From NCBI GenBank assembly GCA_963827275.1, contig CAWHAA010000005.1:617924-681923 (forward strand): a stretch of 64,000 bases of DNA, in the 5' to 3' direction. Under the pieces are notes generated by a model. It saw only the letters and a list, made by a program, of their open reading frames with translations, did no database searches and was not told where the DNA came from. The stretch comes from an uncultured Spirochaetota bacterium (GTDB lineage Bacteria > Spirochaetota > UBA4802 > UBA5550). Below are positions 7,648 to 55,084 of this stretch, in pieces; positions within the stretch are counted from its first letter, which is position 1; each line of letters begins with the position of its first letter. The translations under genes were made by a program, and so were the position numbers.

Positions 7648-8955
7648 ATGGTACCGTACCTCTTGCCTGAAAATTTTTACCTCGGAACTGCGACCGCGGC
7701 CCTGCAGATAGAGGGGGGTGATATCAACAACACGTGGCTCCGCTGGTGCCGGCAGGCTGGCCGGATCAAGGACGGGAGCGACTGCCGCGTGGCCGATGAC
7801 CACTGGAACAGGGTCAGGGAGGACATCGGCATCATGAAGAAGCTGAACGTGACGGCCTACCGCATGGGCCTGGAGTGGAGCCGCATCCAGCCTGACGAAG
7901 ACAGCTTCGACCGCGACGCGCTCGAGCATTACCGCGACGAGATCAGCCAGCTGAAAAAAGCGGGCATTCAACCGCTGATTACCCTGCACCATTTTTCGAA
8001 CCCCATCTGGATGGAGGACTCGGGCGGGTGGACAGACGAATCATCGGTCCACCGCTTCGAGCGTTACGCCGAGGTCGCCGCCCGCTATTTCGGCGACATT
8101 GCAAGCGACTGGGTAACCATCAACGAGCCGAACGTCTATCTCCTTTTCGGCTATGTCGCCGGCACATGGCCGCCGGGCGGGCACAGCATCATCAAATACA
8201 TGCAGGGCGCGCGGAACATGATCCGGGCGCACATCGCCGCGTACCGGAAAATCCACGAGGTGCGGAAGGCCATGGGGCACGGCGACACGAAGGTCGGCGT
8301 GGCGCACCATCTCCGCGTATTCGAGCCGAAGCGGGGTACCGCGGGAGAGCGCCTCGCGGCCTTTCTGCAAAACCGGCTCTTTCACGAGATATTCATCACC
8401 GGCATGTCCGAGGGGCGATACATCCTGCCGATCGGCGCCGGGTACCCCATGGGCAGGGGAAACTACCAGGACTTCCTCGGCATCAACTACTACACACGGG
8501 AGATGGTCTCGTTCGACATTACGAAGCCGGGGCAGATGTTCGGCGACATCAGCACCCGGGAGGGCGCCCCGGTGAACGACCTGGGGTGGGAGCTCTACCC
8601 CGAAGGCCTGTACCGGTTCTGCGAAAAATATTACCGCCGCTTCAGGGTCCCCATCTATATCACTGAAAACGGCACCGCCGACGCCGCAGACCGCTTCAGG
8701 ACAAAATACATCTACGACCACCTCTTGCAGGTGTCACGCCTGATAGCGGCGGGCGTCGATGTGCAGCGCTACTATCACTGGAGCTTCATGGACAACTTCG
8801 AATGGGCCGAGGGGCTGGAGCCGCGGTTCGGCCTGGTGGCCGTGGACTATACAACGCAGAAGCGGACGATACGGGAAAGCGGGAAATTCTACGCCGAGCT
8901 GTGCAAACACCGTGGCGTCACGGAAGGGATGATACGAAAGTATCTCAAGAGCTGA
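7648..8955 (+). CDS. GH1 family beta-glucosidase/beta-galactosidase
   Basis: 435 aa. N-terminal GH1 signature FYLGTATAALQIEGG, acid/base motif TINEPN and nucleophile motif YITENG. Strong ribosome-binding site AAGGAGG. Confidence 0.9.
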   Translation: MVPYLLPENFYLGTATAALQIEGGDINNTWLRWCRQAGRIKDGSDCRVADDHWNRVREDIGIMKKLNVTAYRMGLEWSRIQPDEDSFDRDALEHYRDEISQLKKAGIQPLITLHHFSNPIWMEDSGGWTDESSVHRFERYAEVAARYFGDIASDWVTINEPNVYLLFGYVAGTWPPGGHSIIKYMQGARNMIRAHIAAYRKIHEVRKAMGHGDTKVGVAHHLRVFEPKRGTAGERLAAFLQNRLFHEIFITGMSEGRYILPIGAGYPMGRGNYQDFLGINYYTREMVSFDITKPGQMFGDISTREGAPVNDLGWELYPEGLYRFCEKYYRRFRVPIYITENGTADAADRFRTKYIYDHLLQVSRLIAAGVDVQRYYHWSFMDNFEWAEGLEPRFGLVAVDYTTQKRTIRESGKFYAELCKHRGVTEGMIRKYLKS

Positions 8956-9668: not shown

Positions 9669-10577
9669 CTACCGCCGCTCCAGCGCCCTGAAGACGCAAG
9701 CATATTCGCCCTTCGCGTTCCAGGCGACCCACCCGCGCGCGCCGGTCGATTCCGCCCCGTCGATCTGGAGCGCAACGTAGCGCTCGAGGCCCACGCGGGC
9801 CCACCCTATGTTGTAGCCGAAGGCCTGGATGAAGGGCTGGACCGTGGCGCGGGTCCCTTTCACCCTCTCGAGCCCTCTGGCCGTCCCGTCCCGAACGGTC
9901 TCGCCGGGATTGGCCAGCCGGTCCCTGTCTCCGGTGAAATGGCTCGGGTAGAGCATGGGATAGATGACATCGGCATGTTTCGCGAAGTTTTCTATCTTCT
10001 GGCCGATGATGTCGTCGCGGTTGTACACGACCCTGCCGAAAAGGTCCGCGGAGAGCACGACCCCGCGCGCGTCTGCGATCCCGCGCGCGCGTTTCAGGAG
10101 CCGGTCCACGAAATCGTACTTCGCTGAAAGGGCATAGAACGGGGCGCCGTCGGGGAAGCGGATATAATCGAGCTGGACCTCGTCGAACCCGGCGGCCGCG
10201 GCCTCCTCGATCGTCGCGAAGAGGCGGTCCATCTGCTCCTCCGGCACCGGTAGCGATTTCAGCCCGTCCTGGAAGCAGACGACCCGCGCGGCGAGGTAGA
10301 TCCCCTCGCGTTTCAGGTACCCGATCACGTCGCGGTTCATCCTCGTGCGGGCTGACATGAAGGGCTGGACGTCCATGACAAGCATGTTGATGCCAAGGGG
10401 CTTCCCATCTTTCACCACCGCCCTGGCATAGTCCGGGCTGCAGGCCTGGCGGTTCGGCACGTACAGGCCGCGGAGCAGTCCCCGTCCCCCGCGCGGCGAC
10501 ATCCCCGCGGTCGAGCACGAGAGGCAGCCCATGGCGGCCGGGACAAGCAGGAGTATGATGACGCGCAGCCGGAGCAT
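9669..10577 (-). CDS. Putative glycoside-hydrolase-like TIM-barrel lipoprotein (GHL/DUF4015-type)
   Basis: Signal/lipobox MLRLRVIILLLVPAAMGCLSCS. It carries a motif I associate with uncharacterised GHL-family hydrolases: FDEVQLDYIRFPDG. The ATG at 10575-10577 lies 1 nt from the MFS transporter stop codon, indicating translational coupling. Confidence 0.5.
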   Translation of the reverse strand: MLRLRVIILLLVPAAMGCLSCSTAGMSPRGGRGLLRGLYVPNRQACSPDYARAVVKDGKPLGINMLVMDVQPFMSARTRMNRDVIGYLKREGIYLAARVVCFQDGLKSLPVPEEQMDRLFATIEEAAAAGFDEVQLDYIRFPDGAPFYALSAKYDFVDRLLKRARGIADARGVVLSADLFGRVVYNRDDIIGQKIENFAKHADVIYPMLYPSHFTGDRDRLANPGETVRDGTARGLERVKGTRATVQPFIQAFGYNIGWARVGLERYVALQIDGAESTGARGWVAWNAKGEYACVFRALERR

Positions 10578-31548: not shown

Positions 31549-33500
<1,952 letters not shown>

Positions 33501-34748: not shown

Positions 34749-36011
34749 ATGTCATTCGAAAAACTGCATCTCATTGCGCCCATTATGAAGGCGCTGAAAA
34801 CCGAAGGCTATTCGCACCCGACGCCGATACAGGAGCGCGCCATACCGATCATACTTGAGAAAAAAGACCTGCTCGGCTGCGCCCAGACCGGGACCGGGAA
34901 AACGGCCGCCTTCGCCATCCCCCTGCTGCAGCTGCTCTACCACGAAGAGCGCGTCAGCGGCACGCCGCGCAGCATACAGGCGCTGATACTGACCCCCACC
35001 AGGGAGCTGGCCATACAGATAGGAGAAAGCTTCACCGCCTACGGAAGGCACACGGGCATCAAGCATACCGTCATCTTCGGCGGGGTGTCGCAGAAGGCGC
35101 AGACCGACGCGCTGCGCGCGGGCGTCCACATCCTGATCGCGACCCCGGGGCGGCTGCTCGACCTCATGAACCAGGGGCACGTTGACCTCCGCCACCTCAG
35201 GCAGTTCGTGCTCGACGAGGCGGACCGGATGCTGGACATGGGCTTCATCCATGACGTAAAGAAGATCATCACGAAAATACCGCCCAAGCGGCAGTCGCTG
35301 TTCTTCTCGGCGACGATGCCGCCCGAGATCTCGAAGCTGGCCGACACCATCCTGGTGAGGCCGGAGAAGGTCGCGGTCACCCCGGTCTCATCCACGGTGG
35401 ATATCATAGACCAGTCGCTCTATTTTGTCGGCAAGAAAGACAAGAAGCAGCTCCTGGTCCACCTCCTGAAAGACCGGTCGGTCGTGTCAGCGCTGGTGTT
35501 CACGCGCACGAAGCACGGGGCCAACAAGGTGGCGGAGGACCTGCTCAAGGCCGGGATACAGGCCGAGGCGATCCACGGCAACAAGTCGCAGGGCGCGCGG
35601 CAGCGGGCGCTGGGCAACTTCAAGGCGCGGCGCACCAGGGTGCTGGTCGCGACCGACATCGCGGCGCGGGGCATCGACATCGACGAGCTCTCGCATGTCA
35701 TCAACTTCGAGATCCCCAACATACCGGAGACCTACATCCACCGCATAGGCCGCACCGGCAGGGCCGGGCTCTCCGGCACGGCGATATCGTTCTGCGACAG
35801 CGAGGAGAAAGAATTCCTCAAGGACATAGAGAAGCTGCTCAAAAAGAACATCCCGGTGGTGGAAGACCACCCCTACCCGCTCCGCGAGACCGCGCCCGCC
35901 GCGCACCAGGCAGCGCCACAGCAGAACCGCCCGCGCGTACAGCAGGGACCATCGGCACGGAACAGCGCCGGCGGGAGCAGGCACTACGGAAGGCAGCGGT
36001 ACGGCAGGTAG
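34749..36011 (+). CDS. DEAD-box ATP-dependent RNA helicase (RhlE-like)
   Basis: 420 aa. Q-motif/motif I region PTPIQERAIP...AQTGTGKTAAF, motif II VLDEADRM, motif III SAT and motif VI HRIGRTGRAG. Confidence 0.9.
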   Translation: MSFEKLHLIAPIMKALKTEGYSHPTPIQERAIPIILEKKDLLGCAQTGTGKTAAFAIPLLQLLYHEERVSGTPRSIQALILTPTRELAIQIGESFTAYGRHTGIKHTVIFGGVSQKAQTDALRAGVHILIATPGRLLDLMNQGHVDLRHLRQFVLDEADRMLDMGFIHDVKKIITKIPPKRQSLFFSATMPPEISKLADTILVRPEKVAVTPVSSTVDIIDQSLYFVGKKDKKQLLVHLLKDRSVVSALVFTRTKHGANKVAEDLLKAGIQAEAIHGNKSQGARQRALGNFKARRTRVLVATDIAARGIDIDELSHVINFEIPNIPETYIHRIGRTGRAGLSGTAISFCDSEEKEFLKDIEKLLKKNIPVVEDHPYPLRETAPAAHQAAPQQNRPRVQQGPSARNSAGGSRHYGRQRYGR

Positions 36012-36028
36012 AATTTAAAAATGGTCAG

Positions 36029-36083
36029 CGCCGTCCCCGGAGGACGGCAGACAAAAAACGGCGCGGTGTTCCCGCGCCGTTTT
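36029..36083. terminator. Bidirectional terminator region (two hairpins) between convergent genes
   Basis: GCCGTCC-ccgga-GGACGGC (36030-36047) and ACGGCGCGG-tgttc-CCGCGCCGT (36058-36080). The second is flanked by AAAAAA upstream and TTTT downstream, so it is usable on both strands. Confidence 0.6.
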
Positions 36084-36106
36084 GCATTTGCATAAAGCGA
36101 TAACCA

Positions 36107-36755
36107 TTAGTCGCGTTTTCTTATGCGACGGCGGACCGCAACGGTGCCCAGCACAAGGCCCATGACGGCGATAAGGCCAAGGGCGGCGGGGCCGAACGAT
36201 TTTTTGCCTGCGGCGCCGGTGGCGGCGTTCGCGCCGCACCCGGAATCATCATCATTGTCCAGCAGGGCAAGAAGGGCGACAGGACTATCAGTCGTTGTTC
36301 CCGCGCCGATAAGGCCCGTGCCGGTGAGTGTAGCAGAGTCAGGATAGTTCCCCGGTATCGACGAAGATACGGTGAAGGTAGCCGTGCTGGTAACTTCTGC
36401 GCTGGGAGTAAATACTACCTGAGCGGTACAGGTTGCCAACCTTGCGAGAGAAGTGCAATTATTCGAAATAATACTAAAAACGTTGTCGGCGTCACCGGAT
36501 TCCCCCGACAGACACACCCTGAATGGTCGAACAAGGAGAAACAGCTCCTTGTGTACTGTTATTTGTTATTGTAACAGTTTGCGGGGCTGAGGGCGTTGTT
36601 GGATTCTGGTTTCCAAAATCGATGGGATCGGGAGAAATACTTAAAGAATAAATACAATCAGACGGGGCCGCATAAACAGAAATCGGCACCAGCGCAACGA
36701 CCGCGCACAGGGCCATCAGAGCTATTAGAAAGTACTTTTTCATAAAAAAACACAC
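36107..36755 (-). CDS. Secreted beta-sandwich (choice-of-anchor/DUF1573-like) protein with Cys-containing C-terminal sorting-like tail; frame shift at a G5 run (about 36501-36506)
   Basis: N-terminal ORF (36755..36492): signal peptide MKKYFLIALMALCAVVALVPISVYA then DFGNQNPTTPSAPQTVTITNNSTQGAVSPCSTIQG. It continues after the shift (36517..36107): NNCTSLARLATCTAQVVFTPSAEVTSTATFTV...DNDDDSGCGANAATGAAGKKSFGPAALGLIAVMGLVLGTVAVRRRIRKRD. That is a GCG motif, a hydrophobic helix and an Arg-rich tail. Confidence 0.5.
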
Positions 36756-36800
36756 TCCTTAATTTTTTTATATACACTGCTTAATATTTAACTGCAACAG

Positions 36801-37043
36801 GAAGAGCCCTTTCATTCCAATGCGTTACTTGAATAAATATTAAACAAGTGTTTAACGACATAATATAAAATGTCAATTTTTTTATGCCCCCTATATGCCG
36901 CGCGGAATCTTTTGTTTTATACAAAAATACATGACCAAATTATAGATTTGTCATGTATGATAAAAATATAGATGCCCAGGATAATTTTAAAATAGAAAAA
37001 TCCGGTGACGATATAAAAAACCGCCGGCTGGGGGCCGGCGGCG
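36801..37043. repeat. Conserved non-coding cassette R1 (about 243 bp), about 95% identical to 38831-39073
   Basis: It begins GAAGAGCC...GATGCGTTACTTGAATAAA...ATGTCAATTTTTTTATGCCCCCTATATGCCGCGCGGAATC. It contains the palindrome ACATGACCAAATTATAGATTTGTCATGT (36928-36955). It ends with the hairpin CCGCCGGCtgggGGCCGGCGG preceded by AAAAAA. On the minus strand that hairpin is a terminator with a T6 tail, for the gene at 37069-38802. Confidence 0.8.
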
Positions 37044-37068
37044 TTATGTTTACAGCATGAGATCCGGA

Positions 37069-38802
37069 TTACTCCAATCCCAATCGTATTGAAGGCAATA
37101 TATCCACGACCCAGCCCGGATTATTCAAAGACTGGTTTTCAGTGCCCAGCAAACGCCCCGGATAGCGGGTCGTGTTGCTCTCACCCTGCACGAAATTCTC
37201 TATCGCGGACGCGCCCGCGTCATGGCGAACATAGATCGCGAGGTTCTTCCCCGATGTATACCTGAACTCGGTATCAAGCGGTATGTTGACCCAATCCCCG
37301 GCCTTGAGTCCCGCAGGCACGGACACCGTGCCGGTAAAGACGGTTTTTTCATCATTCATGTTGTCCAGATATGAAGGACCGAGCGCAAGAGTATCGAGGT
37401 CGGAATGCCCGATGACAATGCTGATGTTTCCATAAGTCTCGGCAACCGAGTCGTTTTGGAGTCGGAACCCGATGCTGTTGATGCTGCCGTAAAGCCCAAG
37501 CTCAACTGCGCGGTACAGAGGCTGGAACTGACCGGTCACGGTCCCATGGAAGGGCGGATAGAGGTTGTGGTTCCCCGACCCTATCACGTCCGCCGTGCCA
37601 CCCTTGAAGCGGAACGTGATATTATTGAGGGCACTACTCAGATCACTTGGTGTATTGACCGAGCCCACAAGCCATGAATTCGCTCCTGCGGAACCATTCT
37701 TTACAAAAATATTTCCGTTTGGTGAAGTCACATATATTTCCACAACCAGGTTGTCAATTCCATTGTAATTAAATGCCCCGTCAAGCGGAAGCCACATATA
37801 TGCCCCATCCGGAATGCCTGCCGGCACCCTGAACTTCCTGTTTGTGGCCACGGTTACCGGTGAACCTGAATTGAAATTAGCATTCCATGACTCGGTCACC
37901 AGTTCAGTACGTGTGGTATGGCCGAGGCGTATCGTTACCGTGCATTCCCGTTCCACCGAATCAGTATGCGTGGCGAAACCGATGCCAATGATACCGCCCG
38001 AGCCATTGATCGTGCCCGCCGGATACAAAAGTTGCAATTTTTGGTAGGCAGCATCATTGATGAACGGAGGATTATTCCCGGTTGTTCCATAGTGCAGTCT
38101 GTTGTCCCCGCCGGCGAAGTTGAATTTTACATCAGGATAGGTATACGCTGTAATACCTGTCGTCGCAGTGCTTGCGCCTGATCCGGTACCATATACCGTG
38201 AAATAATTTACTCCATCTTCTGTATGTGTCGTTAGTACTACGCCGCCTGCTGTAGGTAATACCGGATTGCGGGAAACTTCAACGACCAGATTATCCACTC
38301 CGTTGTAATAGAACGGCTGGGTCAATTGAATAGTAAAATAATCGCACACTGTGCAATTCGGGATGGTTACGCTCTGGTTATCGAGCACTGTCGTGTAGGT
38401 TCCCTTGCCCTGTTGAACATTGCTGGCATAGGTACTGCTGAGCGTGGTCACACTCGTATGCCCCATTTTTATAGTCACCCCGTTGAAGGTCCTATCAGCT
38501 CCAGGAGAAGCATTGTATTTAAAGGAAATTGAAGTTATCATGCCGGCCCCCTTGATGTCGCCAGCCGGAAACATCATCATATACCGGCTTTCATCATGAG
38601 TGCCCCACATGCTTGATGCCGAGGATGCTCCCCCACCACCGATGACTTCTTTAACAAATACCCCCTGCACGGCAGGCGCACTGCCTCCGCCAAGCCCCAG
38701 GAGGGCCATAATGCCGCTATTGTCGCTCTTCACCTTGCTGCAGCCGGCCAGCATACATACCGAAAGAATTCCGATGAACATTACGCCGAGAAACTTTTTC
38801 AT
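37069..38802 (-). CDS. Large surface lipoprotein with three internal about 150-aa repeat domains (paralog A)
   Basis: 577 aa. Lipobox MKKFLGVMFIGILSVCMLAGCSK. Three internal repeats share the ...FxYNGxDNLVVE... pattern. Ribosome-binding site AAGGAGAG. No recognised domain. Confidence 0.6.
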   Translation of the reverse strand: MKKFLGVMFIGILSVCMLAGCSKVKSDNSGIMALLGLGGGSAPAVQGVFVKEVIGGGGASSASSMWGTHDESRYMMMFPAGDIKGAGMITSISFKYNASPGADRTFNGVTIKMGHTSVTTLSSTYASNVQQGKGTYTTVLDNQSVTIPNCTVCDYFTIQLTQPFYYNGVDNLVVEVSRNPVLPTAGGVVLTTHTEDGVNYFTVYGTGSGASTATTGITAYTYPDVKFNFAGGDNRLHYGTTGNNPPFINDAAYQKLQLLYPAGTINGSGGIIGIGFATHTDSVERECTVTIRLGHTTRTELVTESWNANFNSGSPVTVATNRKFRVPAGIPDGAYMWLPLDGAFNYNGIDNLVVEIYVTSPNGNIFVKNGSAGANSWLVGSVNTPSDLSSALNNITFRFKGGTADVIGSGNHNLYPPFHGTVTGQFQPLYRAVELGLYGSINSIGFRLQNDSVAETYGNISIVIGHSDLDTLALGPSYLDNMNDEKTVFTGTVSVPAGLKAGDWVNIPLDTEFRYTSGKNLAIYVRHDAGASAIENFVQGESNTTRYPGRLLGTENQSLNNPGWVVDILPSIRLGLE

Positions 38803-38830
38803 ATACTCTCCTTTATATTAACTGTTATGG

Positions 38831-39073
38831 GAAGAGCCTCAAAATTTTGATGCGTTACTTGAATAAAATCTTAAACAAGTGTTTAACGACATAATATAAA
38901 ATGTCAATTTTTTTATGCCCCCTATATGCCGCGCGGAATCTTTTGTTTTATACAAAAATACATGACCAAATTATAGATTTGTCATGTATGATAAAAACAT
39001 AGATGCCCAGGATAATTTTAAAATAGAAAAATCCTGTGACAAAATAAAAAACCACCGGCGGGGGGCCGGCGGC
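38831..39073. repeat. Conserved non-coding cassette R2, near-identical copy of R1
   Basis: Same sequence as R1 with about 10 substitutions. Its terminator hairpin CCACCGGCgggggGCCGGCGG lies 26 bp after the stop of the gene at 39101-40849. The same palindrome is at about 38948-38975. Confidence 0.8.
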
Positions 39074-39100
39074 TGTTAACGAAACAATAAACAAGATGGG

Positions 39101-40849
39101 TTATCTTGAAATTTTAAACTTCATATTAAACTTATAATCCTGCGGTGTTCCCACGGTAGCATTCCCCGGAACGCCAGCCGCCATTTGACCCGGATATCTC
39201 GTTGCATTCGATGATGATACTATGCAACTATGGCTTGGGATAGCCGGAAATGTGGTCGCCGTGGTACCCAGCCAGACAGCAAGATTACTAGTACCATTAT
39301 AGATAAACGGTTGTGTCAGCGGGATTTCGATCCAGTCACCCTGTACAAGACCGGCAGGCATTGAAAAGAAACCGTTAAGCGCAATCAACTGGTCATTAAA
39401 GTTACCAGCAGCAGGGTCCGCCACCAGAGGATCCGCGCTGCTGTGTCCAATAATAACCCGATAATTGTTATAGGTTGTCGCAGTTGATGATGGACTGTTC
39501 AAGCGGCAGGCAATAGAAGTAATGGTGCCGGCCGAGCCCAGCTCCGTGGCACGGTACAGGGTTAACCTGCCTTCTGCATTTGTGGAAAATGGCATGCTGG
39601 TTGACGAACCACTGGCAGTTATAACGTCCATGGTGCCGCCGGCGAAGCGGAGTACCGGTTCAAATGCGCGCTGTCGAATGGTACCGGTAGGACTTAATGG
39701 ATTTGTTGAAGATACAACACGATATGGTATAATATTATTGTATTGAAGCAAGTAACTACCCGAATCGACAATACATGTTATATCTATCAACAGATTACTT
39801 GTTCCGTCATAAAAAAAACGACTTTTATTAAAAGGTATCCAGACAGTTGACGGTTGTTCAGCAGGCACAGTGTATGCGATATCCTGTGCTACGATAACCG
39901 GGGCATTATCGCCATAATTATCAGTAAATGTGGTAACAAGACCCGTTGTGGAAACAGGAACATGAGCAACACTTACAGTCATATTTGAAACAACAGTTAA
40001 AGCAGTAACACTGTACGGATGCAAAGCCAAGCCCGTAATCAATCCGCTGCCATTAATATCAGATGCCAAGATAAGCATCTGAGTACGTCCAGTTGTACCA
40101 GGTGCCAATGTAAGGCCATTTGGTCCAGTTTTATCAGAACAAATCACATTATTTGTCCCGCCCGCGAACTTGAACTTCACATGATGCGGGCTCTGGCTGG
40201 TTTGTGTCGCCGTATCAGGCGTGGCGCTGCTTGTGCTGTACACCCTGCCGGTATACGGGACCGCCCCGGCGCCGGTTGTGAGCCGGACCCCGCCGGTGCA
40301 GGCCGACGTCCGGGTGATATCGACCACGAGATTGTCCACCCCGTTGTAATTGAACCGGGTATCGAGCGGTATTTCAAAATATTCCCCCGCGGCGCCCGCG
40401 GGGATGCTCACCGCCCTGTCCAGGACCGTCACGGCAGAGCCCTTGCCCTGGTTGACGTTCGAGGTCATATCCGTATTGAGCGCGGGAACAGAAGAATGCC
40501 CGAGCCTGATGGTGACGCGCGGACAGGAGAGCGCCTGGCTGTTTTCATAGTACCGGAAGTAGATGGACGCGATATTGCCGGACCCGGCGATGTCCGCAGG
40601 CAGGTACAGGAACTGGTAGTGGCGGAACTCCTCCCCGTTGAACGGGCCCAGGATGGAGCTGGTCGGGTTGCTCAGCGCGACCGTCTTGATAAAATTCGGC
40701 CCGCCGGAGAGGCCGAGCAGGGCCAGCATGGAATTGTCTTCTTTTTCCCTGTTGCAGACGGTCAGTGCGAGCAACGAAACAATCAATGTGAATAATGCCA
40801 TATATAGCTTTTTCATGACCTTCCCCCATGTTGATGCGCATATGCCCAC
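39101..40849 (-). CDS. Large surface lipoprotein (paralog B of 37069-38802)
   Basis: 582 aa. Lipobox MKKLYMALFTLIVSLLALTVCNR. Shares the MLALLGLSGG, NVNQGKG..TVLD and FNYNGVDNLVVD repeat-domain blocks with paralog A at roughly 35-40% identity. Ribosome-binding site GGGGGAAGG. Confidence 0.6.
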   Translation of the reverse strand: MGICASTWGKVMKKLYMALFTLIVSLLALTVCNREKEDNSMLALLGLSGGPNFIKTVALSNPTSSILGPFNGEEFRHYQFLYLPADIAGSGNIASIYFRYYENSQALSCPRVTIRLGHSSVPALNTDMTSNVNQGKGSAVTVLDRAVSIPAGAAGEYFEIPLDTRFNYNGVDNLVVDITRTSACTGGVRLTTGAGAVPYTGRVYSTSSATPDTATQTSQSPHHVKFKFAGGTNNVICSDKTGPNGLTLAPGTTGRTQMLILASDINGSGLITGLALHPYSVTALTVVSNMTVSVAHVPVSTTGLVTTFTDNYGDNAPVIVAQDIAYTVPAEQPSTVWIPFNKSRFFYDGTSNLLIDITCIVDSGSYLLQYNNIIPYRVVSSTNPLSPTGTIRQRAFEPVLRFAGGTMDVITASGSSTSMPFSTNAEGRLTLYRATELGSAGTITSIACRLNSPSSTATTYNNYRVIIGHSSADPLVADPAAGNFNDQLIALNGFFSMPAGLVQGDWIEIPLTQPFIYNGTSNLAVWLGTTATTFPAIPSHSCIVSSSNATRYPGQMAAGVPGNATVGTPQDYKFNMKFKISR

Positions 40850-40952
40850 CGCGGGTCAGCGACCGCGGCTGTTATGTAGCCGGTTTGGATTTTTGTAATC
40901 TTGACATGATATTCATTTTCGTCAACACTTTACTGGCGGGGCAGTGGGTTTG

Positions 40953-41075
40953 TTTACTCTGACCCCCCGGTTTCCTGCGTTGCTTACTCTGACCCCAGTG
41001 CTTTTCCTGCGAGCCGGCGATAGTTATCGGTAGATTCCGAACTCTGACACCGTATTATTGTTTACTCTGACCCCC
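40953..41075. repeat. Cluster of short dispersed repeats: 3-4 copies of TTACTCTGACCCC plus one CGATAGTTATCGG
   Basis: TTTACTCTGACCCCCC 40953-40968; TTACTCTGACCCC 40984-40996; CGATAGTTATCGG 41018-41030; degenerate AACTCTGACACC 41039-41050; TTTACTCTGACCCCC 41061-41075. Two copies are followed by TTT(T)CCTGCG. The cluster is in the divergent intergenic region between lipoprotein B and the FadL-like outer-membrane protein gene. Confidence 0.6.
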
Positions 41076-41300
41076 TTGTTTTCATAATAATTTATTTTTT
41101 ATATACATAAAATGATAAAAAATAATATTTTACTGGACTCTTCCATAGAAAATCGCTATTATTAGTGGTTTGGGTAGAATGGGTTGCATTATTAGAAGGT
41201 AACAATATAAAAGAACAAACGCTCTAATGATGCGAGCTATGTTCCTGTGCAATCGGGCCCTTATTGTGCGGTACAAGTCGCATCATAGCAATGTGTTGTA

Positions 41301-43091
41301 ATGAAAAAAATTATAAAGCCACTATCGAAGACCTTCGTGATCTGCCTGGCAGCGATAACTATCCATGCTGCGGCAGCTTCCGCTTCTCCCCTGCATGATG
41401 AGAGTGGCATCATGCCCGAGCACAGCGCGGAATATGTACGCACGCAAAGCAGGAACGCCAGCACTGATGCTGACGCGGTTTTTTACAACCCGGCCGGTTT
41501 GGCTTTCCTGCTCAATGGCGGGATATACCTCATGCTCAACGTCATGAATGAATACCGCCAGCACGATACGTCCGCCACCCTGTGGGGCCTGCAGGGCGTT
41601 GACGCGTATACTCCGGCAACCGCGCCAGGCCGCTACCTTGACAGGGGAACGTATTCCACCCGGTCCATGACGACCATGCCCTCCGACATGGCATTCATTT
41701 ACAAAAGGACCAACTGGGCCGTCTTCTCTTATTTCTCGCTCCTGAACCACATCCCCGGCCAGAACAGCTCACGGGGCCTGTCCTCGCTGGACCGTTCTAC
41801 CGTCGCCTTCAACGCGGTCATGGCCTCGCGGCTGTCGCAGCAGCTGGGCCACATCGCCAGCAGCAGCTACCTGAGCAGGAGCCAGACGGACCTGGGCGTT
41901 ACGGTCGGCGGGACGTTCGCGCCCCTCGACTGGTTCTCGCTGTCGCTGGCCGCCAGGTACCTCTACATGAGCTCAAGCACCGTGCTCGCACACGCGCCAC
42001 TCGACGTCGGCTACTCGGGCGGGATATCGGGAAACGCCTACCAGGTGCCGACCTACATCGATACGGACCTCTCGGGCCACGGGGCCGGCATCATCGCGGG
42101 GCTCGACGTCAGGCCCCGTGAAGAAATCAACATCGGCCTGCGGCTCGAATACTATCCGCCGATGGCGGCGAAAAAGACGACCGAACGCTTCATCGCCAAC
42201 CCGGTCGTGGCGCAAACGGGGGAGCTGAACATATTCTGCGACAGCGTCTGGCCGCTGCTGCTCAATGACCGCGCCGGCAGCATGGGGCAGGTGCTTAACT
42301 TCCTGCTGATGGACCAACGGGCGCTCAAGAACATCGGCAACAGGGTCGCGGTGACCTATCCCGCATCTTTATCGCTCGGATTCTCCTACCTGGCCGCGGG
42401 CGCCGTGAAGCTGTCCACGTCCGTCGATATCACCTTTCCCCGCGCCCGGGACCTTGACGGCCGGGAGCGCGACTGGAACATCGCCGGGTACCGACTGGGC
42501 CAGAGCGTTGAATGGATCATCAACAAGTGGGTCGACGTCAGCGCCGGCTATTCATACCACGATTACGGGATAAAAGCTGCCAGGAGAACGGAGTACAACA
42601 CCCTCCTGCCGAGCCATACCGTGGGCGGCGGCTTCACCATGAAGGTGCTTGACTTCATGAACCTGACTGCGGGCGGCTCATACAGCTTTGAAACTCCCTC
42701 TCGCACCGGCAGCCTGGAGCTGATACGCTCGACCCTCATGGGCGACCAGTTCGCCTACGGCATGGCGCAATCAGGGCGGCACACGGGCAGCTCGTGGCGC
42801 ATCTCGCTGGGCGTTTCCTTCTCGATCTTCCCGGTATCGGCGGAACACATACGGAGGGCGGAGGAGCATTACTGGAAAGGAATGTCTAATTATCTGTCCG
42901 ATGACATCGATTCCGCCATCGACGAGTTCAAGGCGGCAAAGTTCAACAACCTGTACTACCGGGACGTTGACAGGAAGATCCGGGACCTCACGGAATTAAA
43001 ACAACTGATTGGCAGGAACAAACAGCAACAGGAAGAAGACAAGAATGATGCCGAGAGAAAAAACAGCAAAAGGAACAGGGGCACCGAATAG
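41301..43091 (+). CDS. Outer-membrane beta-barrel protein (FadL/TodX-like hatch motif) with about 100-aa charged C-terminal extension
   Basis: Signal peptide MKKIIKPLSKTFVICLAAITIHAAAASA. AVFYNPAGLAFL resembles the FadL N-terminal NPA hatch motif. The last strand is ...WRISLGVSFSIF, followed by a helical, Lys/Glu-rich tail (EHIRRAEEHYWKGMSNYLSDDIDSAIDEFKAAKF...). Confidence 0.5.
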   Translation: MKKIIKPLSKTFVICLAAITIHAAAASASPLHDESGIMPEHSAEYVRTQSRNASTDADAVFYNPAGLAFLLNGGIYLMLNVMNEYRQHDTSATLWGLQGVDAYTPATAPGRYLDRGTYSTRSMTTMPSDMAFIYKRTNWAVFSYFSLLNHIPGQNSSRGLSSLDRSTVAFNAVMASRLSQQLGHIASSSYLSRSQTDLGVTVGGTFAPLDWFSLSLAARYLYMSSSTVLAHAPLDVGYSGGISGNAYQVPTYIDTDLSGHGAGIIAGLDVRPREEINIGLRLEYYPPMAAKKTTERFIANPVVAQTGELNIFCDSVWPLLLNDRAGSMGQVLNFLLMDQRALKNIGNRVAVTYPASLSLGFSYLAAGAVKLSTSVDITFPRARDLDGRERDWNIAGYRLGQSVEWIINKWVDVSAGYSYHDYGIKAARRTEYNTLLPSHTVGGGFTMKVLDFMNLTAGGSYSFETPSRTGSLELIRSTLMGDQFAYGMAQSGRHTGSSWRISLGVSFSIFPVSAEHIRRAEEHYWKGMSNYLSDDIDSAIDEFKAAKFNNLYYRDVDRKIRDLTELKQLIGRNKQQQEEDKNDAERKNSKRNRGTE

Positions 43092-43110: not shown

Positions 43111-45114
43111 ATGAAGCAAAGGATATTTTACATGATCATGATAAGCCTGCTCGGCCTGAACGGGTGCACAAACTATCTCGAGGGCAACCGGGATACCCAG
43201 CTGCTCTACGCGGCCTTTTTCAGCACGGCGCCGGTGCTGAACCCGCTTGTGATCGCCGGCACATCGAACAATTTCATTACCCTGGCCCGGCCGACATTTG
43301 TCGTTGCCGGAAGTCCCGCGCCGTCGGTCGAAGCGTACATCGGGCTGGACGACGGGAGCATGACTATTTCGGGAACGACGGTGACCGGCGCCATAGAGGG
43401 CCCGGTCGACGTTTCAGCCGCTCCGTACCAGTTTAACACCGGCCTGTCGCCAGACACCATTTATCGCATCTATGTCGTGGCGATAAACCCCAATGGCTAT
43501 TCCGTCAGGACCATCACACAGAGTACTTCGCATATCGTGCCGGTGCTGGATCCCCTGGTGATGAGCATTCCGCCAACATCCGATACAATAACCCTGGACC
43601 AGCCGACTTTCTCGACTGCGGGCAACCCCCTGCCCACGGTTGAGGCGTATATCGGCTATGCCGGGGGAGCAACGCCCATATCCATAACACCGGCGGCCAC
43701 CGGCTATACCGTTGCCAACGATCTCCAGGGCCCGGTGGACGTTTCCGCCGGCGGATGTCAGTTCACCGGCCTCGCGAACAATACCCTCTACCGGGTTTAC
43801 GTGGTGGCGCAGAACATGGATGTGAGCGGTACATACCACCAGTCGATCGAGTTTATCGACGAGAGCACTTATGGGATAGCGCCGGTCATGGACGCGCTGG
43901 TGACAACGACGATTCCGCCGACAACAGACACGATAACACTGGACCAGCCGACGTTCTCGACTGCGGGGAACCCCCTGCCAGCGGTGAGCGCGTATATCGG
44001 CGTGGACGGCTTCATTTCAGTCGCGGGAACCGCGGTAAGCGGCGCCACCCAGGGACCGATCGACGTGTCATCAGCTGACTACACCTTCACCGGCCTTGCA
44101 AATGACACGACCTACCGGATCATCGTGGTGGCGCAGAACGTTATCGGTTCCTCGGTACAGCAGGCGACGCAGAGCACGACGGGCATCGCGCCGGCGATGA
44201 ACGCGCTGGTCACGACCACCATCCCGCCCACAACAGACACGATAACACTGGACCAGCCGACATTTGCCACTGGGGGCAACCCGGTCCCGACGGTGCGGGC
44301 CTATATCGGCATTGATGGATTCATAACGGTCGCAGGGACCACGGTAAGCGGCGCAGACCAGGGGCCTGTCAATGTGGCAGCGGCAGGCTGTACCTTCACC
44401 GGCCTGGCCAACGACACGACCTACCGGATCATCGTGGTGGCTGAAAACAGCGTCGGCTCATCGGTGCAGCAGGCGACGCAGAGCACCGGGGGCATAGCGC
44501 CGGTAATGGAAGCACTGGTCATAACAACGGTTTCACCCACGATTGACACAATTACCCTGGACCAGCCGACGTTTACCACCGGAGGAAACCCGGCGCCTAC
44601 TGTCAAAGCCTACATCGGTATTGATGGCTTTATTTCAGTCGCGGGGACCGTGGTGACCGGCGCAGACCAGGGACCGATCAACGCGGCATCTGGAGGTTAC
44701 ACCTTTACCGGCCTGGACAATGACACGACCTACCGGATCATTGTGGTGGCCGAAAATACCTTCGGCTCTTCGGTACAGCAGACGACGCAGAGCACGGTGG
44801 GTATCGCTCCGGTGATGGACACGCTGGTCACGACCACTATCCCACCGACCACAGACACGATCACACTGGACCTGCCGACGTTTACCACCGGGGGCAACCC
44901 GGCGCCGACGGTCAAAGCATACATCGGTATTGACGGCTTTATTTCAGTCGTGGGGACAGTGGTGACCGGCGCAGACGAGGGGCCGATCAATGTAGCGTCA
45001 GCCGGATACGCGTTCACGGGACTGACAAACGGCACCACCTACCGGATCATCGTGGTGGCCGAGAACAGCGCGGGTTCTTCAGTACAGCAGGCAACAGAGA
45101 CCACGCTGCCGTGA
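43111..45114 (+). CDS. Repetitive surface lipoprotein with about six tandem FN3-like repeats
   Basis: Start at ATG 43111 (ribosome-binding site GGGAGGT; lipobox MKQRIFYMIMISLLGLNGCTN). The ORF track's start at 43009 overlaps the upstream gene. About 100-aa units (IAPVMDALVTTTIPPTTDTITLDQPTFSTAGNPLPAVSAYIGVDGFISVAGTAVSGATQGPIDVSSADYTFTGLANDTTYRIIVVAQNVIGSSVQQATQST) repeat about 6 times at high DNA identity. Confidence 0.65.
   Translation: MKQRIFYMIMISLLGLNGCTNYLEGNRDTQLLYAAFFSTAPVLNPLVIAGTSNNFITLARPTFVVAGSPAPSVEAYIGLDDGSMTISGTTVTGAIEGPVDVSAAPYQFNTGLSPDTIYRIYVVAINPNGYSVRTITQSTSHIVPVLDPLVMSIPPTSDTITLDQPTFSTAGNPLPTVEAYIGYAGGATPISITPAATGYTVANDLQGPVDVSAGGCQFTGLANNTLYRVYVVAQNMDVSGTYHQSIEFIDESTYGIAPVMDALVTTTIPPTTDTITLDQPTFSTAGNPLPAVSAYIGVDGFISVAGTAVSGATQGPIDVSSADYTFTGLANDTTYRIIVVAQNVIGSSVQQATQSTTGIAPAMNALVTTTIPPTTDTITLDQPTFATGGNPVPTVRAYIGIDGFITVAGTTVSGADQGPVNVAAAGCTFTGLANDTTYRIIVVAENSVGSSVQQATQSTGGIAPVMEALVITTVSPTIDTITLDQPTFTTGGNPAPTVKAYIGIDGFISVAGTVVTGADQGPINAASGGYTFTGLDNDTTYRIIVVAENTFGSSVQQTTQSTVGIAPVMDTLVTTTIPPTTDTITLDLPTFTTGGNPAPTVKAYIGIDGFISVVGTVVTGADEGPINVASAGYAFTGLTNGTTYRIIVVAENSAGSSVQQATETTLP
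43250..45110 (+). repeat. Intragenic tandem repeat (about 300-bp unit x about 6) encoding the FN3-like modules
   Basis: Near-identical DNA blocks are visible. For example GACACGATAACACTGGACCAGCCGAC recurs at about 43926, 44236, 44536 and 44850. Confidence 0.7.
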
Positions 45115-51853: not shown

Positions 51854-52516
51854 TTATTTACTCTGTGACACGACCCACTGGACAGCGGCTTTCACAAGCT
51901 CCGGCCCCTTCTGGATGCCCAGCTTGTCCTTGATCTTTTTGCGGTGGCTCTCGATGGTATTCACGCTGATATTCAGCTTCTTTGCTATGTCGCCGGTGCT
52001 CATACCGCCGCCGATCATGCGGAATATCTCAAGTTCGCGGTCAGACAGAATCTCAGGCATGGACTCCCCGCCGGTCTCCTTTCCCTGGAAGAGGCGGTCA
52101 ATGATCTTCATGGAGATCCTTCCGCTCAGGTAGAGCTCCCCGCTCATGACGGTCCGTATTGCCTGGATGATGACCGCCGGGGCCTCTTTTTTCGCCACGT
52201 AGCCGCGCGCGCCTGCGCGCAGGGCCCGCTCCGCGTAGATGTTCTCGTCGTGCATCGAAAGCACCAGGACCTTGACCGCGGGGAAGCGGTCCTTCATGGC
52301 CTTGATAAGGTCGATGCCGCTTGTTTCGCTCTCCATCGAAATATCGACGATGGCGAGGTCCGGCTCTTCCTGGCTGATGCAGCGGATCGCCTCTTCCGCG
52401 CTGCCCGCTTCGTTGATGACCGAAAGCCCCTGCTCTTTTTCAATGACCTTCTTCATTCCCTGGCGCACCAGTGGATGGTCGTCGACGATAATGATCCTTG
52501 TGTTCTGTTCCGCCAT
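51854..52516 (-). CDS. NarL/FixJ-type response regulator (REC + LuxR-type HTH)
   Basis: 220 aa. IIIVDDHPLVRQG...LAIVDISM (REC) and a C-terminal LSDRELEIFRMIGGGMSTGDIAKKLNISVNTIESHRKKI (LuxR/GerE HTH). Confidence 0.85.
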   Translation of the reverse strand: MAEQNTRIIIVDDHPLVRQGMKKVIEKEQGLSVINEAGSAEEAIRCISQEEPDLAIVDISMESETSGIDLIKAMKDRFPAVKVLVLSMHDENIYAERALRAGARGYVAKKEAPAVIIQAIRTVMSGELYLSGRISMKIIDRLFQGKETGGESMPEILSDRELEIFRMIGGGMSTGDIAKKLNISVNTIESHRKKIKDKLGIQKGPELVKAAVQWVVSQSK

Positions 52517-52674: not shown

Positions 52675-55084
52675 TCAGGCATTGCCGTCGATAAATTCCT
52701 TCCTGATCATGACGCGGACGGTAAATCCCCGGCCGCCGGTATGAAACGAGCAGGAACCGCCGATGATCCCCGCCCGGTACCGCATGATCCGCAGCCCGAT
52801 CCCCTTGCTCTCATCGAACGTATCCGCCGCTCCCGAGCCGTTATCGTGGACCTCGAGATAGAGATGGTCCGTATCATCGGCAAGGCGGATCTCTATCCGG
52901 TCCGCCTTACCGTGCTTGATGGCGTTATTGATCGACTCCCGCGCGATGAAGTAGAGGTTGGTCACCACCGCGCCGTTGGTCACCGGCCCGGAGATGCCGC
53001 TGTCAAGCGTGCAGGTTATGCCGAAGAGGTCCTCGGTGTCCTCGGCCAGCTCGCGCAGCGCGCGCCGGACGTCATGCGACTCAAGACGCGTCGTCCAGAG
53101 TCCCCGCGATATCTTACGCGCATCGTCGATGGATTCCGCGATATTGGCGCTGATCTCCTCGACATCCGCCAGCTCCGGGTAATTCTTTTCCCGCATGGAG
53201 CGCTTCAGCGCCTCTGCCAGGAACCCGATGCCGGTCAGCTTCTGGCCCAGGCCGTCGTGCAGGTCCTGTCCGATCCGCTTCCGCTCGAGCTCGCTGATCT
53301 CCATGATCTCTTTCTGGAGGCGCCTCGTCTCCGTGATGTCGTGCGAGAAAACGGCCAGCTTGGTGACGACCCCCCGGGAATCGGTAACGGGGTACATGAT
53401 CGTGTCATACCAGCTCCTGCCGATCCGGTGCTCGAAGCGGACCGCCTTGCCCGAACGCTCCACCGCGTCCATCTTTTCCCTGTAGCGGCCGGCATCGGCC
53501 TCCCTGATATAATCGAACATCGACCGGCCGATGACCTCCGACCTTCGGCCTGGCAAGCCTCTTTTCCAGCTCGGCATTCAGGTCGATGACGGTGCCGTCG
53601 GCGGACACCAGGAACACCGGCTCGCTCGGCGAATTGATGAGGGCGCGCGCGACCTCCTCGCCCTCCCGGAGCAGGAGCTCCGCCTTCTTCCTCTCCTCGA
53701 TTTCGCTCCGAAGCTTCGCGGTCCGCTCCCGGACGCGCTGCTCGAGCAGCTCGTTCGCTTCCGTGAGCGCACGCTCGTAATTCTGCCGCTGCAGGGTCAG
53801 GGCGTAGAGGTCGGCGATTCGGCGCGCCGTTTCAAGGTCACGCTCCGTGTAGTCATGGGGCGCGTTCGCCAGCGCGATCTGGCCGAGGAGCGTATCACCG
53901 ACCACGGCCGGGACCGACAGGAAATTTTTAAGATGGACATGGCCGGCGGGAACACCGCTGGACGCCGTGTGCCCGCCGGGAGAATTCGTGTAAAACGGCC
54001 TCAGCGTGTTGAGCGAATGTCCCCAGAGCCCGCCGTAGGCGCCGTCGGCCCCGGCGGGAAACCTGACCAGGTCGTGGCCGTTCTTGATATTGCATTCTTC
54101 ATCCATCATCTGCGAAAGGGTGTGGCAGAGGAGGTCCCGGGTCCGGGAATCAATGATCCCGGCGTACCCGTGCTCGCTGCCGGTGAGGGCCCGTGCGTGG
54201 CGGAGCACCATCGCCGACATCTCCTCGATCGCGATTCCCGGCCTGATCATGAACTCCGAAAGGTCCGCGAGCGCGGCGTTCACGGACAGCTCCCACTGTA
54301 GATTTTCCTCCAGCATTTTACGCCGGGATATGTCCCGCACGATTCCCAGGAGGTGCTTCGGCTGGCCCGCCTCGTCGCGGATGACCGTAAGGGTAAGGTC
54401 GATCGGGAAGACCGTGCCGTCCCTCCGCATTGACTTGTATTCGGTGGTCTGCTGGGCGTCGGCCTTGATGTTTTTCCTCAGGTTGCGCTTCGCGCGTTCC
54501 CGCTCCTCCTCCGAAAAAAGCGAGAACACCGTGACCCCCGACGATTTCATCTCCTCGAAGCTTTCAAAGCCGTACATGGCGAGGAACTTCCTGTTCGCCA
54601 TCAGGAAATTCATGTCAAGGTCGGTGAGCGCGATGCCGTCCGGTGAAATCTCGACGAGGGTGCGGTAGCGCACCTCGCTGTCGCGCAGTTTTTTCTCCAG
54701 TCCGCTCCTCTGCAGGGCGGTCTCGATGGTCGTGTACAGGTCGTCGGTGCCCACCGGCTTGACCAGGTACCCGTGCGGGTGGGTCTCGAGGGCCCTCCGG
54801 AACATGTCCGGCGAGCTGTAGGCGGTGAAATAGATCACCGGTATGTCCATCGTTTTCTTGATCTGCCTGACCGCTTCTATCCCGTTCATTTCTCCTTCGA
54901 GGGTGATGTCCGCGATGATCAGGTCCGGTTCAAGCTCCACCGCCTTTTCCACCGCCTCGGCGCCCGAGGAGAGCGGGTCATACACCTCGTAGCCGATCCG
55001 GCGCAGGGTGTTGCGGATATCGAGCGCGGTAAGGCGGTCGTCTTCGACGATCATGATGCGGGCGTTGGTCAGGCGTTCTTTCAT
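52675..55084 (-). CDS. Hybrid sensor histidine kinase (REC-PAS-GAF-PAS-HisKA_3-HATPase); apparent frame shift near 53540-53560
   Basis: Upstream ORF (55084..53405): REC (IMIVEDDRLTALDI...LIIADITLEG), PAS, GAF-like, coiled-coil, then the start of a second PAS (ALINSPSEPVFLVSADGTVIDLNAELEKRL). The second PAS continues in another frame (ORF 53577..52675: RRSEVIGRSMFDYIREADAGRYREKMDAVERSGKAVRFEHRIGRSWYDTIMYPV...). That second ORF then carries the NarX-type H-box ERKRIGQDLHDGLGQ and the HATPase N/G-boxes. Confidence 0.8.

Follow-up and report, generated by a model that had tools for sequence, protein, structure and literature searches.

The surface-protein locus described here lies in a 64-kb stretch of DNA (the window) from an uncultured Spirochaetota bacterium and comprises two lipoprotein genes, A and B, and a gene for a small secreted protein, C, all of them minus-strand genes. 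Their order, as transcribed, is gene B, a spacer (R2), gene A, a second spacer (R1) and gene C, beyond which stands the convergent gene for a DEAD-box helicase. The two spacers are copies of one element, R, which forms direct repeats of about 230 bp, 2030 bp apart, around gene A. A first-pass annotation of the window had described R as a non-coding cassette better conserved than the genes that it flanks. It offered three explanations: recombination cassettes used for antigenic variation, strongly constrained shared regulation, and the recent re-use of a portable promoter-terminator module. The features of the locus and their coordinates are collected in Table 1.

R1 and R2 had been called near-identical, and over the positions first assigned to them (36801-37043 and 38831-39073) 227 of the 244 alignment columns, or 93.0%, do agree. 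A blastn comparison extends the homology beyond these limits (90.6% over 288 nucleotides (nt), E = 6e-110), and a repeat search returns 97% identity over 208 nt. The element may be regarded as a composite of a terminator of about 35 nt (T), an AT-rich core of about 190 nt and a leader of about 60 nt. T and the core together span 229 nt, of which 9 differ between the copies (about 4%; 96% identity), and these differences are unevenly distributed. Counted from the transcriptionally upstream end, seven of them fall within the initial 81 nt, which form the terminator part, none within the 127 nt that follow, and two within the 21 nt after that. Conservation is lowest in the leader, which is only about 72% alike in the two copies. 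The unevenness is evident both between the first 81 nt (9% differences) and the identical block (Fisher p = 0.001) and between T plus core and the leader (28% differences; Fisher p = 2e-7). The leaders are still homologous, their local alignment score being 20 against 8.0 +/- 1.6 in 2000 shuffles. The homology runs across the ribosome-binding site (RBS) and the ATG of gene A, and it fades gradually into the leader. R1 holds a decayed copy of this RBS and ATG (AAGCAGTGTATATA; AAGCAG...ATA), and gene C has its own RBS and ATG 20 nt further on. The 5' coding ends have only about 10 nt in common. Of the upstream region that each R was proposed to supply to the next gene, the core stands before both A and C, and the RBS-proximal leader is the part that has changed most. 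The small open reading frames (ORFs) in R are chance ORFs of 33-47 aa without an RBS, and no Rfam match better than E = 5 is found within 36000-41500.

Table 1. Features of the surface-protein locus (window coordinates; R1 and R2 are the two copies of the repeat, T its terminator)
Feature	Coordinates	Strand	Description or basis
Gene A	37069..38802	-	577-aa lipoprotein, lipobox LAGC, three beta-sandwich domains; R2 and R1 on its two sides
Gene B	39101..40816	-	571-aa lipoprotein (from ATG), of a subfamily other than A's
Gene B, domain 1	40157-40816	-	Kept in sister strain L095
Gene B, domains 2-3	39101-40156	-	Strain-specific
Gene C	36107..36743	-	Choice-of-anchor D domain protein, ~211 aa; signal peptide; C-terminal Cys...TM (transmembrane)...RRR tail
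DEAD-box helicase gene	34749-36011	+	Convergent with gene C
Second bidirectional terminator, unrelated to T	36063..36080	.	Between gene C and the DEAD-box helicase gene; terminator scan
R2, spacer between B and A	38792..39078	-	Terminator, AT-rich core and leader of A; blastn against R1
R1, spacer between A and C	36761..37046	-	Terminator, AT-rich core and leader; blastn against R2
127-nt identical block, R2 copy	38871..38997	-	Holds the palindrome, CCGCGCGG, TTGACA and TTAAACACTTGTTTAA
127-nt identical block, R1 copy	36840..36966	-	Alignment
Terminator T of gene B (R2 copy), AGCCGCCGGCCCCCCGCCGGTGG + T6	39050..39074	-	Terminator scan; fold -18.2 kcal/mol, z = -3.8
Terminator T of gene A (R1 copy)	37020..37042	-	Terminator scan; stem-loop identical to the L095 terminator at the DEAD-box helicase gene
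32-bp imperfect palindrome ATACATGAC-N14-GTCATGTAT, R2 copy	38958..38989	.	TATAAT at the centre (sense strand), T5 run after it
32-bp imperfect palindrome, R1 copy	36927..36958	.	Repeat and motif searches
TTGACA hexamer	38902..38907 (R1 copy 36871-36876)	-	~100 nt upstream of A's ATG; by position, not listed by the promoter scan
Promoter-like TTGTCA-N16-TAAAAT	39015..39042 (R1 copy 36984-37011, TCGTCA)	-	Directly after the terminator; promoter scan
GGCUCUUCC block	38830..38838 (R1 copy 36800-36808)	-	Conserved in both leaders; alignment, fold
Strain-specific segment	36012..40156	-	B domains 2-3, R2, A, R1, C and second terminator; 4145 nt against 1119 nt in L095

The first 35 nt or so of each R are a strong intrinsic (Rho-independent) terminator, made of a G+C-rich hairpin and a T run. 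In both copies the hairpin has a stem of 9-10 bp with 7-8 G-C pairs and is followed by T6, and a gap of 26-27 nt separates it from the stop codon of A or B. The claim that each R furnishes a terminator for the lipoprotein gene upstream of it is therefore borne out. A reading of the terminator as an integron attC site was rejected: no RYYYAAC/GTTRRRY core sites are seen by eye, and there is no integrase among the neighbouring genes scanned.

The imperfect palindrome pointed out in the first-pass annotation, ACATGACCAAATTATAGATTTGTCATGT, is present in both copies of R and nowhere else in the window. It may serve as an operator at the DNA level; alternatively, its RNA would form a hairpin (-10.3 kcal/mol) with a U run behind it and act as an attenuator. 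It had been proposed as the binding site of a regulator for the whole surface-protein island, but gene B has an upstream region that lacks it. One candidate for a regulator that binds it is the LuxR-type response regulator encoded at window 51854-52516, given the LuxR/MalT-type regulators beside family genes in L009, L011 and L092. Further small, nested palindromes are found in the AT-rich core. The block conserved in the two leaders is predicted to pair with the Shine-Dalgarno sequence of gene A, AAGGAGAG.

Promoter-like sites number 15 in the R region, against 8.5 +/- 2.7 in shuffles. Three candidate promoters can be named as guesses at the level of consensus matching, namely the TTGTCA-16-TAAAAT site after the terminator, the TATAAT in the palindrome and the TTGACA about 100 nt before the ATG. 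The first of these matches the sigma-70 consensus, with its -35 and -10 hexamers spaced by 16-18 nt, at 10 of 12 positions in R2 and at 9 of 12 in R1, and such sites are common in a region as AT-rich as this. A reading of the palindrome as a sigma-54 promoter (TGGCAC-N5-TTGC, with GG and GC at a spacing of 12 nt) plus enhancer was also considered and discarded as a weak match; CGGCATATAGGGGGCA scores 7 of the 11 specified positions, and eight chance sites in the window score 9.

The further copies of R and the silent or partial lipoprotein cassettes that the first-pass annotation envisaged were not encountered. A blastn search of the window with a word size of 7 gives no third copy of R in 64 kb, and tblastn searches with A, B and the A-type protein P0007 give no silent or partial lipoprotein cassette in the same 64 kb. 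Nothing was returned by exact scans of genome contigs with a 24-mer of the palindrome, by exact scans of metagenome contigs with a 26-mer of the identical block and with the degenerate palindrome, by a scan of viral contigs with the degenerate palindrome, or by blastn of R against plasmid and phage collections. These results bear on the idea that R is a small non-autonomous mobile element inserted twice, of the miniature inverted-repeat transposable element (MITE), Correia or repetitive extragenic palindromic (REP) type. The AT-richness of R, its length of about 200 nt, its promoter-like and terminator-like signals and its sharp 5' boundary would all suit such an element. However, inspection of the alignment ends reveals neither terminal inverted repeats nor a target-site duplication, the homology fades out gradually in the leader, and the two copies stand alone both in the 64 kb and against every collection searched. 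Insertion of a mobile element is considered very unlikely.

The history of the locus can be followed by comparison with a sister strain, represented by contig CAYSGQ010000205.1 of assembly GCA_964430645.1 (L095). A 596-aa gene divergent from B is 99.2% identical in the window and in L095 (15 of 1791 nt differ, 12 of the 15 at third codon positions), the intergenic region between this gene and B is 97.3% identical, and B itself is 97.7% identical over its initial 660 nt. The homology then stops within a few bases, at window 40157, directly after the codons for KFKFAGG, a motif found throughout the family. At the amino-acid level, domain 1 of B is 97.6% identical in the two strains, whereas domains 2-3 are 39% identical. 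The homology returns at the helicase stop codon, where the last 55 nt of the L095 contig are 100% identical to window 36010-35956. After KFKFAGG, L095 has its own B domains 2-3, a spacer of 112 nt and a terminator, and the helicase stop codon follows directly; between B and this stop codon L095 lacks gene A, gene C and the AT-rich core. L093 and L094, relatives at a greater distance with about 80% nucleotide identity to the window in the flanks, have the same layout of B, T, DEAD-box helicase gene, 195-aa gene and Metallophos gene, with a recognisably homologous terminator. The R core is absent from all the relatives compared.

The layouts of L095, L093 and L094 indicate that B-T-DEAD, kept in these three relatives, is the ancestral state of the locus, that the T part of R is likewise ancestral, and that window 36012-40156 has taken the place of 1119 nt in this strain only. 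R1 has the same T stem-loop as L095, and the stem-loop of R2 is two substitutions away from it. Conservation of the T hairpin at this locus in L093, L094 and L095, even where the coding sequence upstream has been replaced, goes beyond what is usual for an intrinsic terminator. A comparison of strains for rearrangements at R had been suggested in the first-pass annotation; the breakpoints between the strains lie in the KFKFAGG coding sequence on the left and at the terminator and helicase stop codon on the right, and neither lies in the AT-rich core. The explanation by recombination cassettes is supported for the locus, in which domains 2-3 of B have been swapped, but not to R, whose core lies away from the breakpoints and which is accompanied by no silent cassettes in the 64 kb.

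A strain-specific segment of this kind could also have been built up from a pool of cassettes. Units of AT-rich core, gene and terminator would be drawn from a population-wide pool, homologous recombination at T, at the core or at both would add them one after another behind B, and R would be the junction between two cassettes. Two unrelated genes, the triple beta-sandwich lipoprotein gene A and the choice-of-anchor D gene C, do carry the same core and are both missing from the sister strain. T-like hairpins follow genes of the lipoprotein family in several genomes, and in L002 they stand on both sides of a lipoprotein gene; moreover, the terminator of R1 is the resident one of L095 and that of R2 is slightly different. 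On the other hand, searches of the window and of genome, metagenome, viral, plasmid and phage collections return no other R core, there is no recombinase gene among the neighbouring genes scanned, gene C ends in a different terminator, and the single import of a pre-formed segment would give the same picture. We regard stacking from a pool as improbable. Slightly less probable still is a more general proposal, according to which the AT-rich core, with its promoter/operator, is the common 5' module of population-wide, self-contained surface-protein cassettes that end in the conserved terminator and are gained, swapped and lost downstream of B domain 1 by homologous recombination at the terminator, the core and the KFKFAGG-coding motif. 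If true, a pool of such cassettes would amount to integrase-free, integron-like surface diversification in free-living Spirochaetota.

The identity of lipoproteins A and B, estimated by eye at 35-40%, is 36% in a quantitative alignment, and the coding regions are indeed not as similar as their flanks. The view that the paralogs diverged while their flanks did not is nevertheless untenable, as A and B belong to old, separate subfamilies. A is closer to P0002 (55%), P0003 (53%) and P0007 (41%) than to B, and the relatives of B are P0119 (53%), P0121 (52%) and P0122 (46%). Each of the two subfamilies has its own relatives at 52-58% identity in other Spirochaetota metagenome genomes, and most named matches come from Spirochaetes/Spirochaetota metagenome genomes. 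A and B are ancient paralogs that were not duplicated jointly with R. In other tandem arrays of the lipoprotein family (three genes in L009, two in L011) the coding DNA is 75-88% alike and the duplications are ordinary ones, so the contrast between diverged genes and similar spacers is specific to this locus and not a property of the family.

Only two pairs of repeated non-coding modules were found around genes of the family in other genomes. A G+C-rich terminator module of 38 nt, 92% identical, occurs on both sides of an A-type lipoprotein gene in L002 (60-97 and 2158-2195). A module of 57 nt, 75% alike, occurs before a 311-aa gene and before a B-type lipoprotein gene in L092 (43% G+C; 7988-8044 and 9893-9949). 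The L092 modules adjoin a large Pkinase-STAND-TPR-LuxR regulator, and the family genes of L009 and L011 lie beside MalT/LuxR-type regulators.

The composition of gene B changes where the strain homology ends. The G+C content at third codon positions (GC3) has its change point at codon 220, window 40156, with 0.795 before and 0.381 after it; none of 500 permutations reaches the observed value, and the change coincides with the KFKFAGG strain break at 40156/40157. In the strain-specific segment GC3 is 0.38-0.57 (0.57 in A), against 0.75-0.92 in most other genes of the window. The idea that this low-GC tract is one recent foreign import is weakened by the same split of B in L095 and L093 (about 0.8 in domain 1, about 0.4 in domains 2-3) and by the likewise low GC3 of the A-type P0007 in L003. 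Low GC3 thus appears to mark the variable part of these genes generally rather than one import.

The difference of about 4% between R1 and R2 is comparable in magnitude to what neutral sites show between the strains, namely 2% at third codon positions and 2.7% in intergenic DNA. Because the R copies lie inside DNA that is absent from the sister strain and their difference is near this neutral value, they are young. The T-core units being young and A and B being ancient paralogs, it follows that the R copies are far more alike than the two genes. The similarity of R is an effect of age and not of unusual constraint. The strong shared constraint suggested at first is not needed, and it is hard to reconcile with 127 unchanged nt next to a leader only 72% alike.

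A duplication that is old and has been kept by strong purifying selection, whether for densely packed regulatory sites or for an RNA that R encodes, would offer another account of the 127 nt that are unchanged beside a leader with about 28% differences. The several nested palindromes would agree with it, as would the folding of the whole spacer, which is better than that of shuffles (z = -3.4). But regulatory DNA is not expected to be invariant at all 127 positions, R has no match in Rfam, and its absence from the sister strain and from all relatives implies that it is not an old conserved feature of the lineage. Preservation of an old duplication is considered quite unlikely.

The reading that we prefer, with a confidence somewhat above even, is that R represents a terminator-promoter module which was duplicated recently, or converted in part, within a surface-protein locus where strains exchange cassettes. 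Among the three explanations offered in the first-pass annotation, the re-use of a portable promoter-terminator module in recent times is also the best fit, as the sister strain lacks the 4.1-kb segment that contains both copies of R. Recombination would have exchanged the DNA from the end of B domain 1 to the helicase stop codon for this segment, which would have brought in new B domains 2-3, the units T-core-A and T-core-C, and another terminator. In each R an ancestral T would be joined to a core that is new to this strain. The two T-core units would be young duplicates, and their central 127 nt may have been homogenised later by gene conversion or may simply be the youngest part. Each R would end the transcription of the preceding gene (B or A) and offer the same promoter/operator region to the following one (A or C). 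A and C may accordingly be co-regulated, and independently of B; the region upstream of B is different from R, ancestral and without the palindrome. Direct repeats of about 230 bp that are 2030 bp apart are expected to allow RecA-dependent deletion or amplification of the DNA between them. Recombination of the RecA type between the R copies, by way of the shared 127-bp block, could loop out or amplify gene A.

Several points weigh against this reading. The promoter function of R is deduced from sequence; the best match to the promoter consensus sits directly behind the terminator, and TTGACA stands where relatives have TTGACA-N17-TAnnnT promoters but is not followed by a good -10 hexamer. The 127-nt block without a difference, beside flanks with 9% and 28% differences, could reflect selection as well; with two copies of R and no relatives to compare, it fits either a later gene-conversion tract or local selection. 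More copies of R may be present in the rest of the genome, beyond the 64-kb window of the 810-kb contig. Finally, the segment may have arrived in one import or in several.

Conserved sequences next to variable lipoprotein genes are known from Borrelia. In Borrelia burgdorferi, the divergent erp lipoprotein genes share a conserved 5' promoter/operator region, the upstream homology box, and are co-expressed (PMC10016077). The evolution of erp has been read as the joining, by recombination, of one promoter/leader module to many diverse coding sequences (PMC10016077). R, from a member of the same phylum, resembles this system in that the same core stands upstream of the divergent genes A and C, though not upstream of B. 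It is unlike erp in having two copies only, which serve two unrelated proteins, and in having no conserved leader peptide: the signal peptides of A and C share only MKK, and no lipobox match is seen in C. Whereas erp genes belong to cp32-type prophage replicons, the R locus is chromosomal, has housekeeping neighbours and gives no match in the phage and plasmid collections. There is no sequence similarity between R and the erp operators.

The vmp system of Borrelia hermsii has an upstream homology sequence of 61-62 bp and a downstream homology sequence of 214 bp with a 31-bp inverted repeat (PMC6011951). T and core of R, with 229 nt, are similar to the latter in being extragenic, in lying downstream of variable lipoprotein genes and in containing a 32-bp imperfect inverted repeat, without any sequence similarity; like the upstream sequence, R has a homology that reaches the RBS/start region. 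These resemblances, together with the hypervariability of the locus between near-identical strains, raise the possibility of programmed antigenic variation, in which R would guide gene conversion from silent cassettes in the manner of the homology sequences of relapsing-fever Borrelia. Unlike vmp, the 64-kb window contains neither an archive of silent promoterless genes nor a single expression site; tblastn with A, B and P0007 finds only two intact genes, and none of A, B and C is truncated, all three having a signal peptide and an upstream region of their own. The core contains neither of the strain breakpoints, the 5' coding ends share only about 10 nt, and the DNA seems to come from an environmental Spirochaetota metagenome genome and not from a known host-associated pathogen. 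Programmed variation is judged to be as unlikely as the preservation of an old duplication by purifying selection.

Replacement-type flexible genomic islands and mosaic surface-protein alleles are found where near-identical strains carry unrelated surface-protein segments at one locus. The segment described here is similar to such islands in its sharp breakpoints in conserved flanks (KFKFAGG and the terminator/helicase stop) and in its atypical codon composition. It differs in being very small (4.1 against 1.1 kb), in having one break inside a gene, at a domain boundary, and in containing a duplicated spacer. Taken by itself, the R repeat is nothing more than an intergenic region that was duplicated not long ago. 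The comparison of the strains carries more weight: next to a gene that is 99% identical, two of the three domains of a surface lipoprotein differ completely, as do two extra genes for secreted or surface proteins, and the breakpoints are sharp to the base, one at a conserved motif and the other at a conserved terminator. Diversifying selection is thereby seen to act on this locus in a spirochaete lineage that is uncultured, and phage, grazers or substrate binding could supply the selective pressure. The locus is also a well-defined system for experiments, the direct repeats being expected to excise or amplify gene A and the palindrome being usable for pull-downs.

The genes served by R had been named as lipoprotein A and a small secreted protein with a tail like a sorting signal. 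The small protein, C, is a choice-of-anchor D protein, and its C-terminal tail (SGCGAN...TM...RRRIRKRD) has no match among the sorting-signal models of NCBIfam. For the lipoproteins, A among them, there is no Pfam or NCBIfam family. The AlphaFold model of A, a confident one (pLDDT 91.4, pTM 0.87), places three beta-sandwich domains after the lipoprotein signal peptide and a disordered linker. The matches to this model in the PDB are weak and only jelly-roll or lectin-like, and the predicted structure is compatible with a surface binding protein. The choice-of-anchor D profile matches C in two pieces, positions 17-52 in one frame and positions 57-104 in the other, which shows that C is one gene split by a frameshift. 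The frame changes at a G5 run (GGGGG) near 36500 (window 36495-36517, minus strand), and this is probably a homopolymer error rather than the mark of a pseudogene. Full-length homologues of C, 199-209 aa long and 38-45% identical, are found in Spirochaetes metagenome genomes.

The gene for methionyl-tRNA synthetase (MetRS; window 31558-33500, plus strand) is spread over three successive frames by two frameshifts, with positions 1-68 of the Pfam profile in one ORF and 180-390 in another. Since MetRS is essential and yet frameshifted, the assembly must carry indel errors. Single-base indels in the window are probably sequencing errors, and other split ORFs in it may have the same cause. One of them may be a hybrid kinase gene broken by an assembly frameshift at window 52675-55084 (minus strand), where a response-regulator-PAS-GAF ORF (53405-55084) overlaps a PAS-HisKA_3-HATPase ORF (52675-53577) by about 170 nt. 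The indel errors, seen in MetRS and in gene C, lend some plausibility to the suspicion that the locus itself is an artefact, in which the assembly used a common repeat to link the haplotypes of two strains. The R copies, however, are 4-7% different and each has a leader of its own that is specific to its gene, no junction breaks the reading frame, and a repeat spacing of 2 kb is easily spanned by long reads. An artefact of this kind is hardly to be expected, even less than a mobile element.

The neighbours of the locus are housekeeping genes, which encode the DEAD-box helicase, MetRS, a HAD hydrolase, an aminotransferase and HisD. There are no phage genes in the neighbourhood and no recombinase or integrase among the neighbouring genes scanned. 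Synteny between the window and the Spirochaetota genome GCA_029564515.1 extends through the HAD hydrolase, GATase and aminotransferase genes beside the lipoprotein gene. With the DEAD-box helicase as the query, genome contigs yield only relatives of 61-74% identity, mostly from Bacteroidota, and no close genome. An exact look-up of the Metallophos neighbour places the species in two Logan samples, on contigs of 2.3 kb.

The upstream region of gene B, between B and the divergent 596-aa gene, contains four copies of the motif GGGGTCAGAG(T/C)A (window 40957-41074, minus strand). Their position is conserved in L095 (3950-4080) and in the relative of about 80% nucleotide identity, L093 (3500-3680). 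The motif also occurs at window 13614, 13855, 13897 and 56960 and in L002, L003 and L005, at scattered intergenic places. A site for a regulator and a short repeat of the dispersed kind are both possible readings.

The locus encodes another surface protein that varies between the strains. It is a fibronectin type III lipoprotein (window 43111-45114, plus strand) whose gene contains six repeats of 309 nt; its length is 667 aa in the window and 579 aa in L095. This protein has diverged far more than the product of the adjacent 596-aa gene, which is 99.2% identical.

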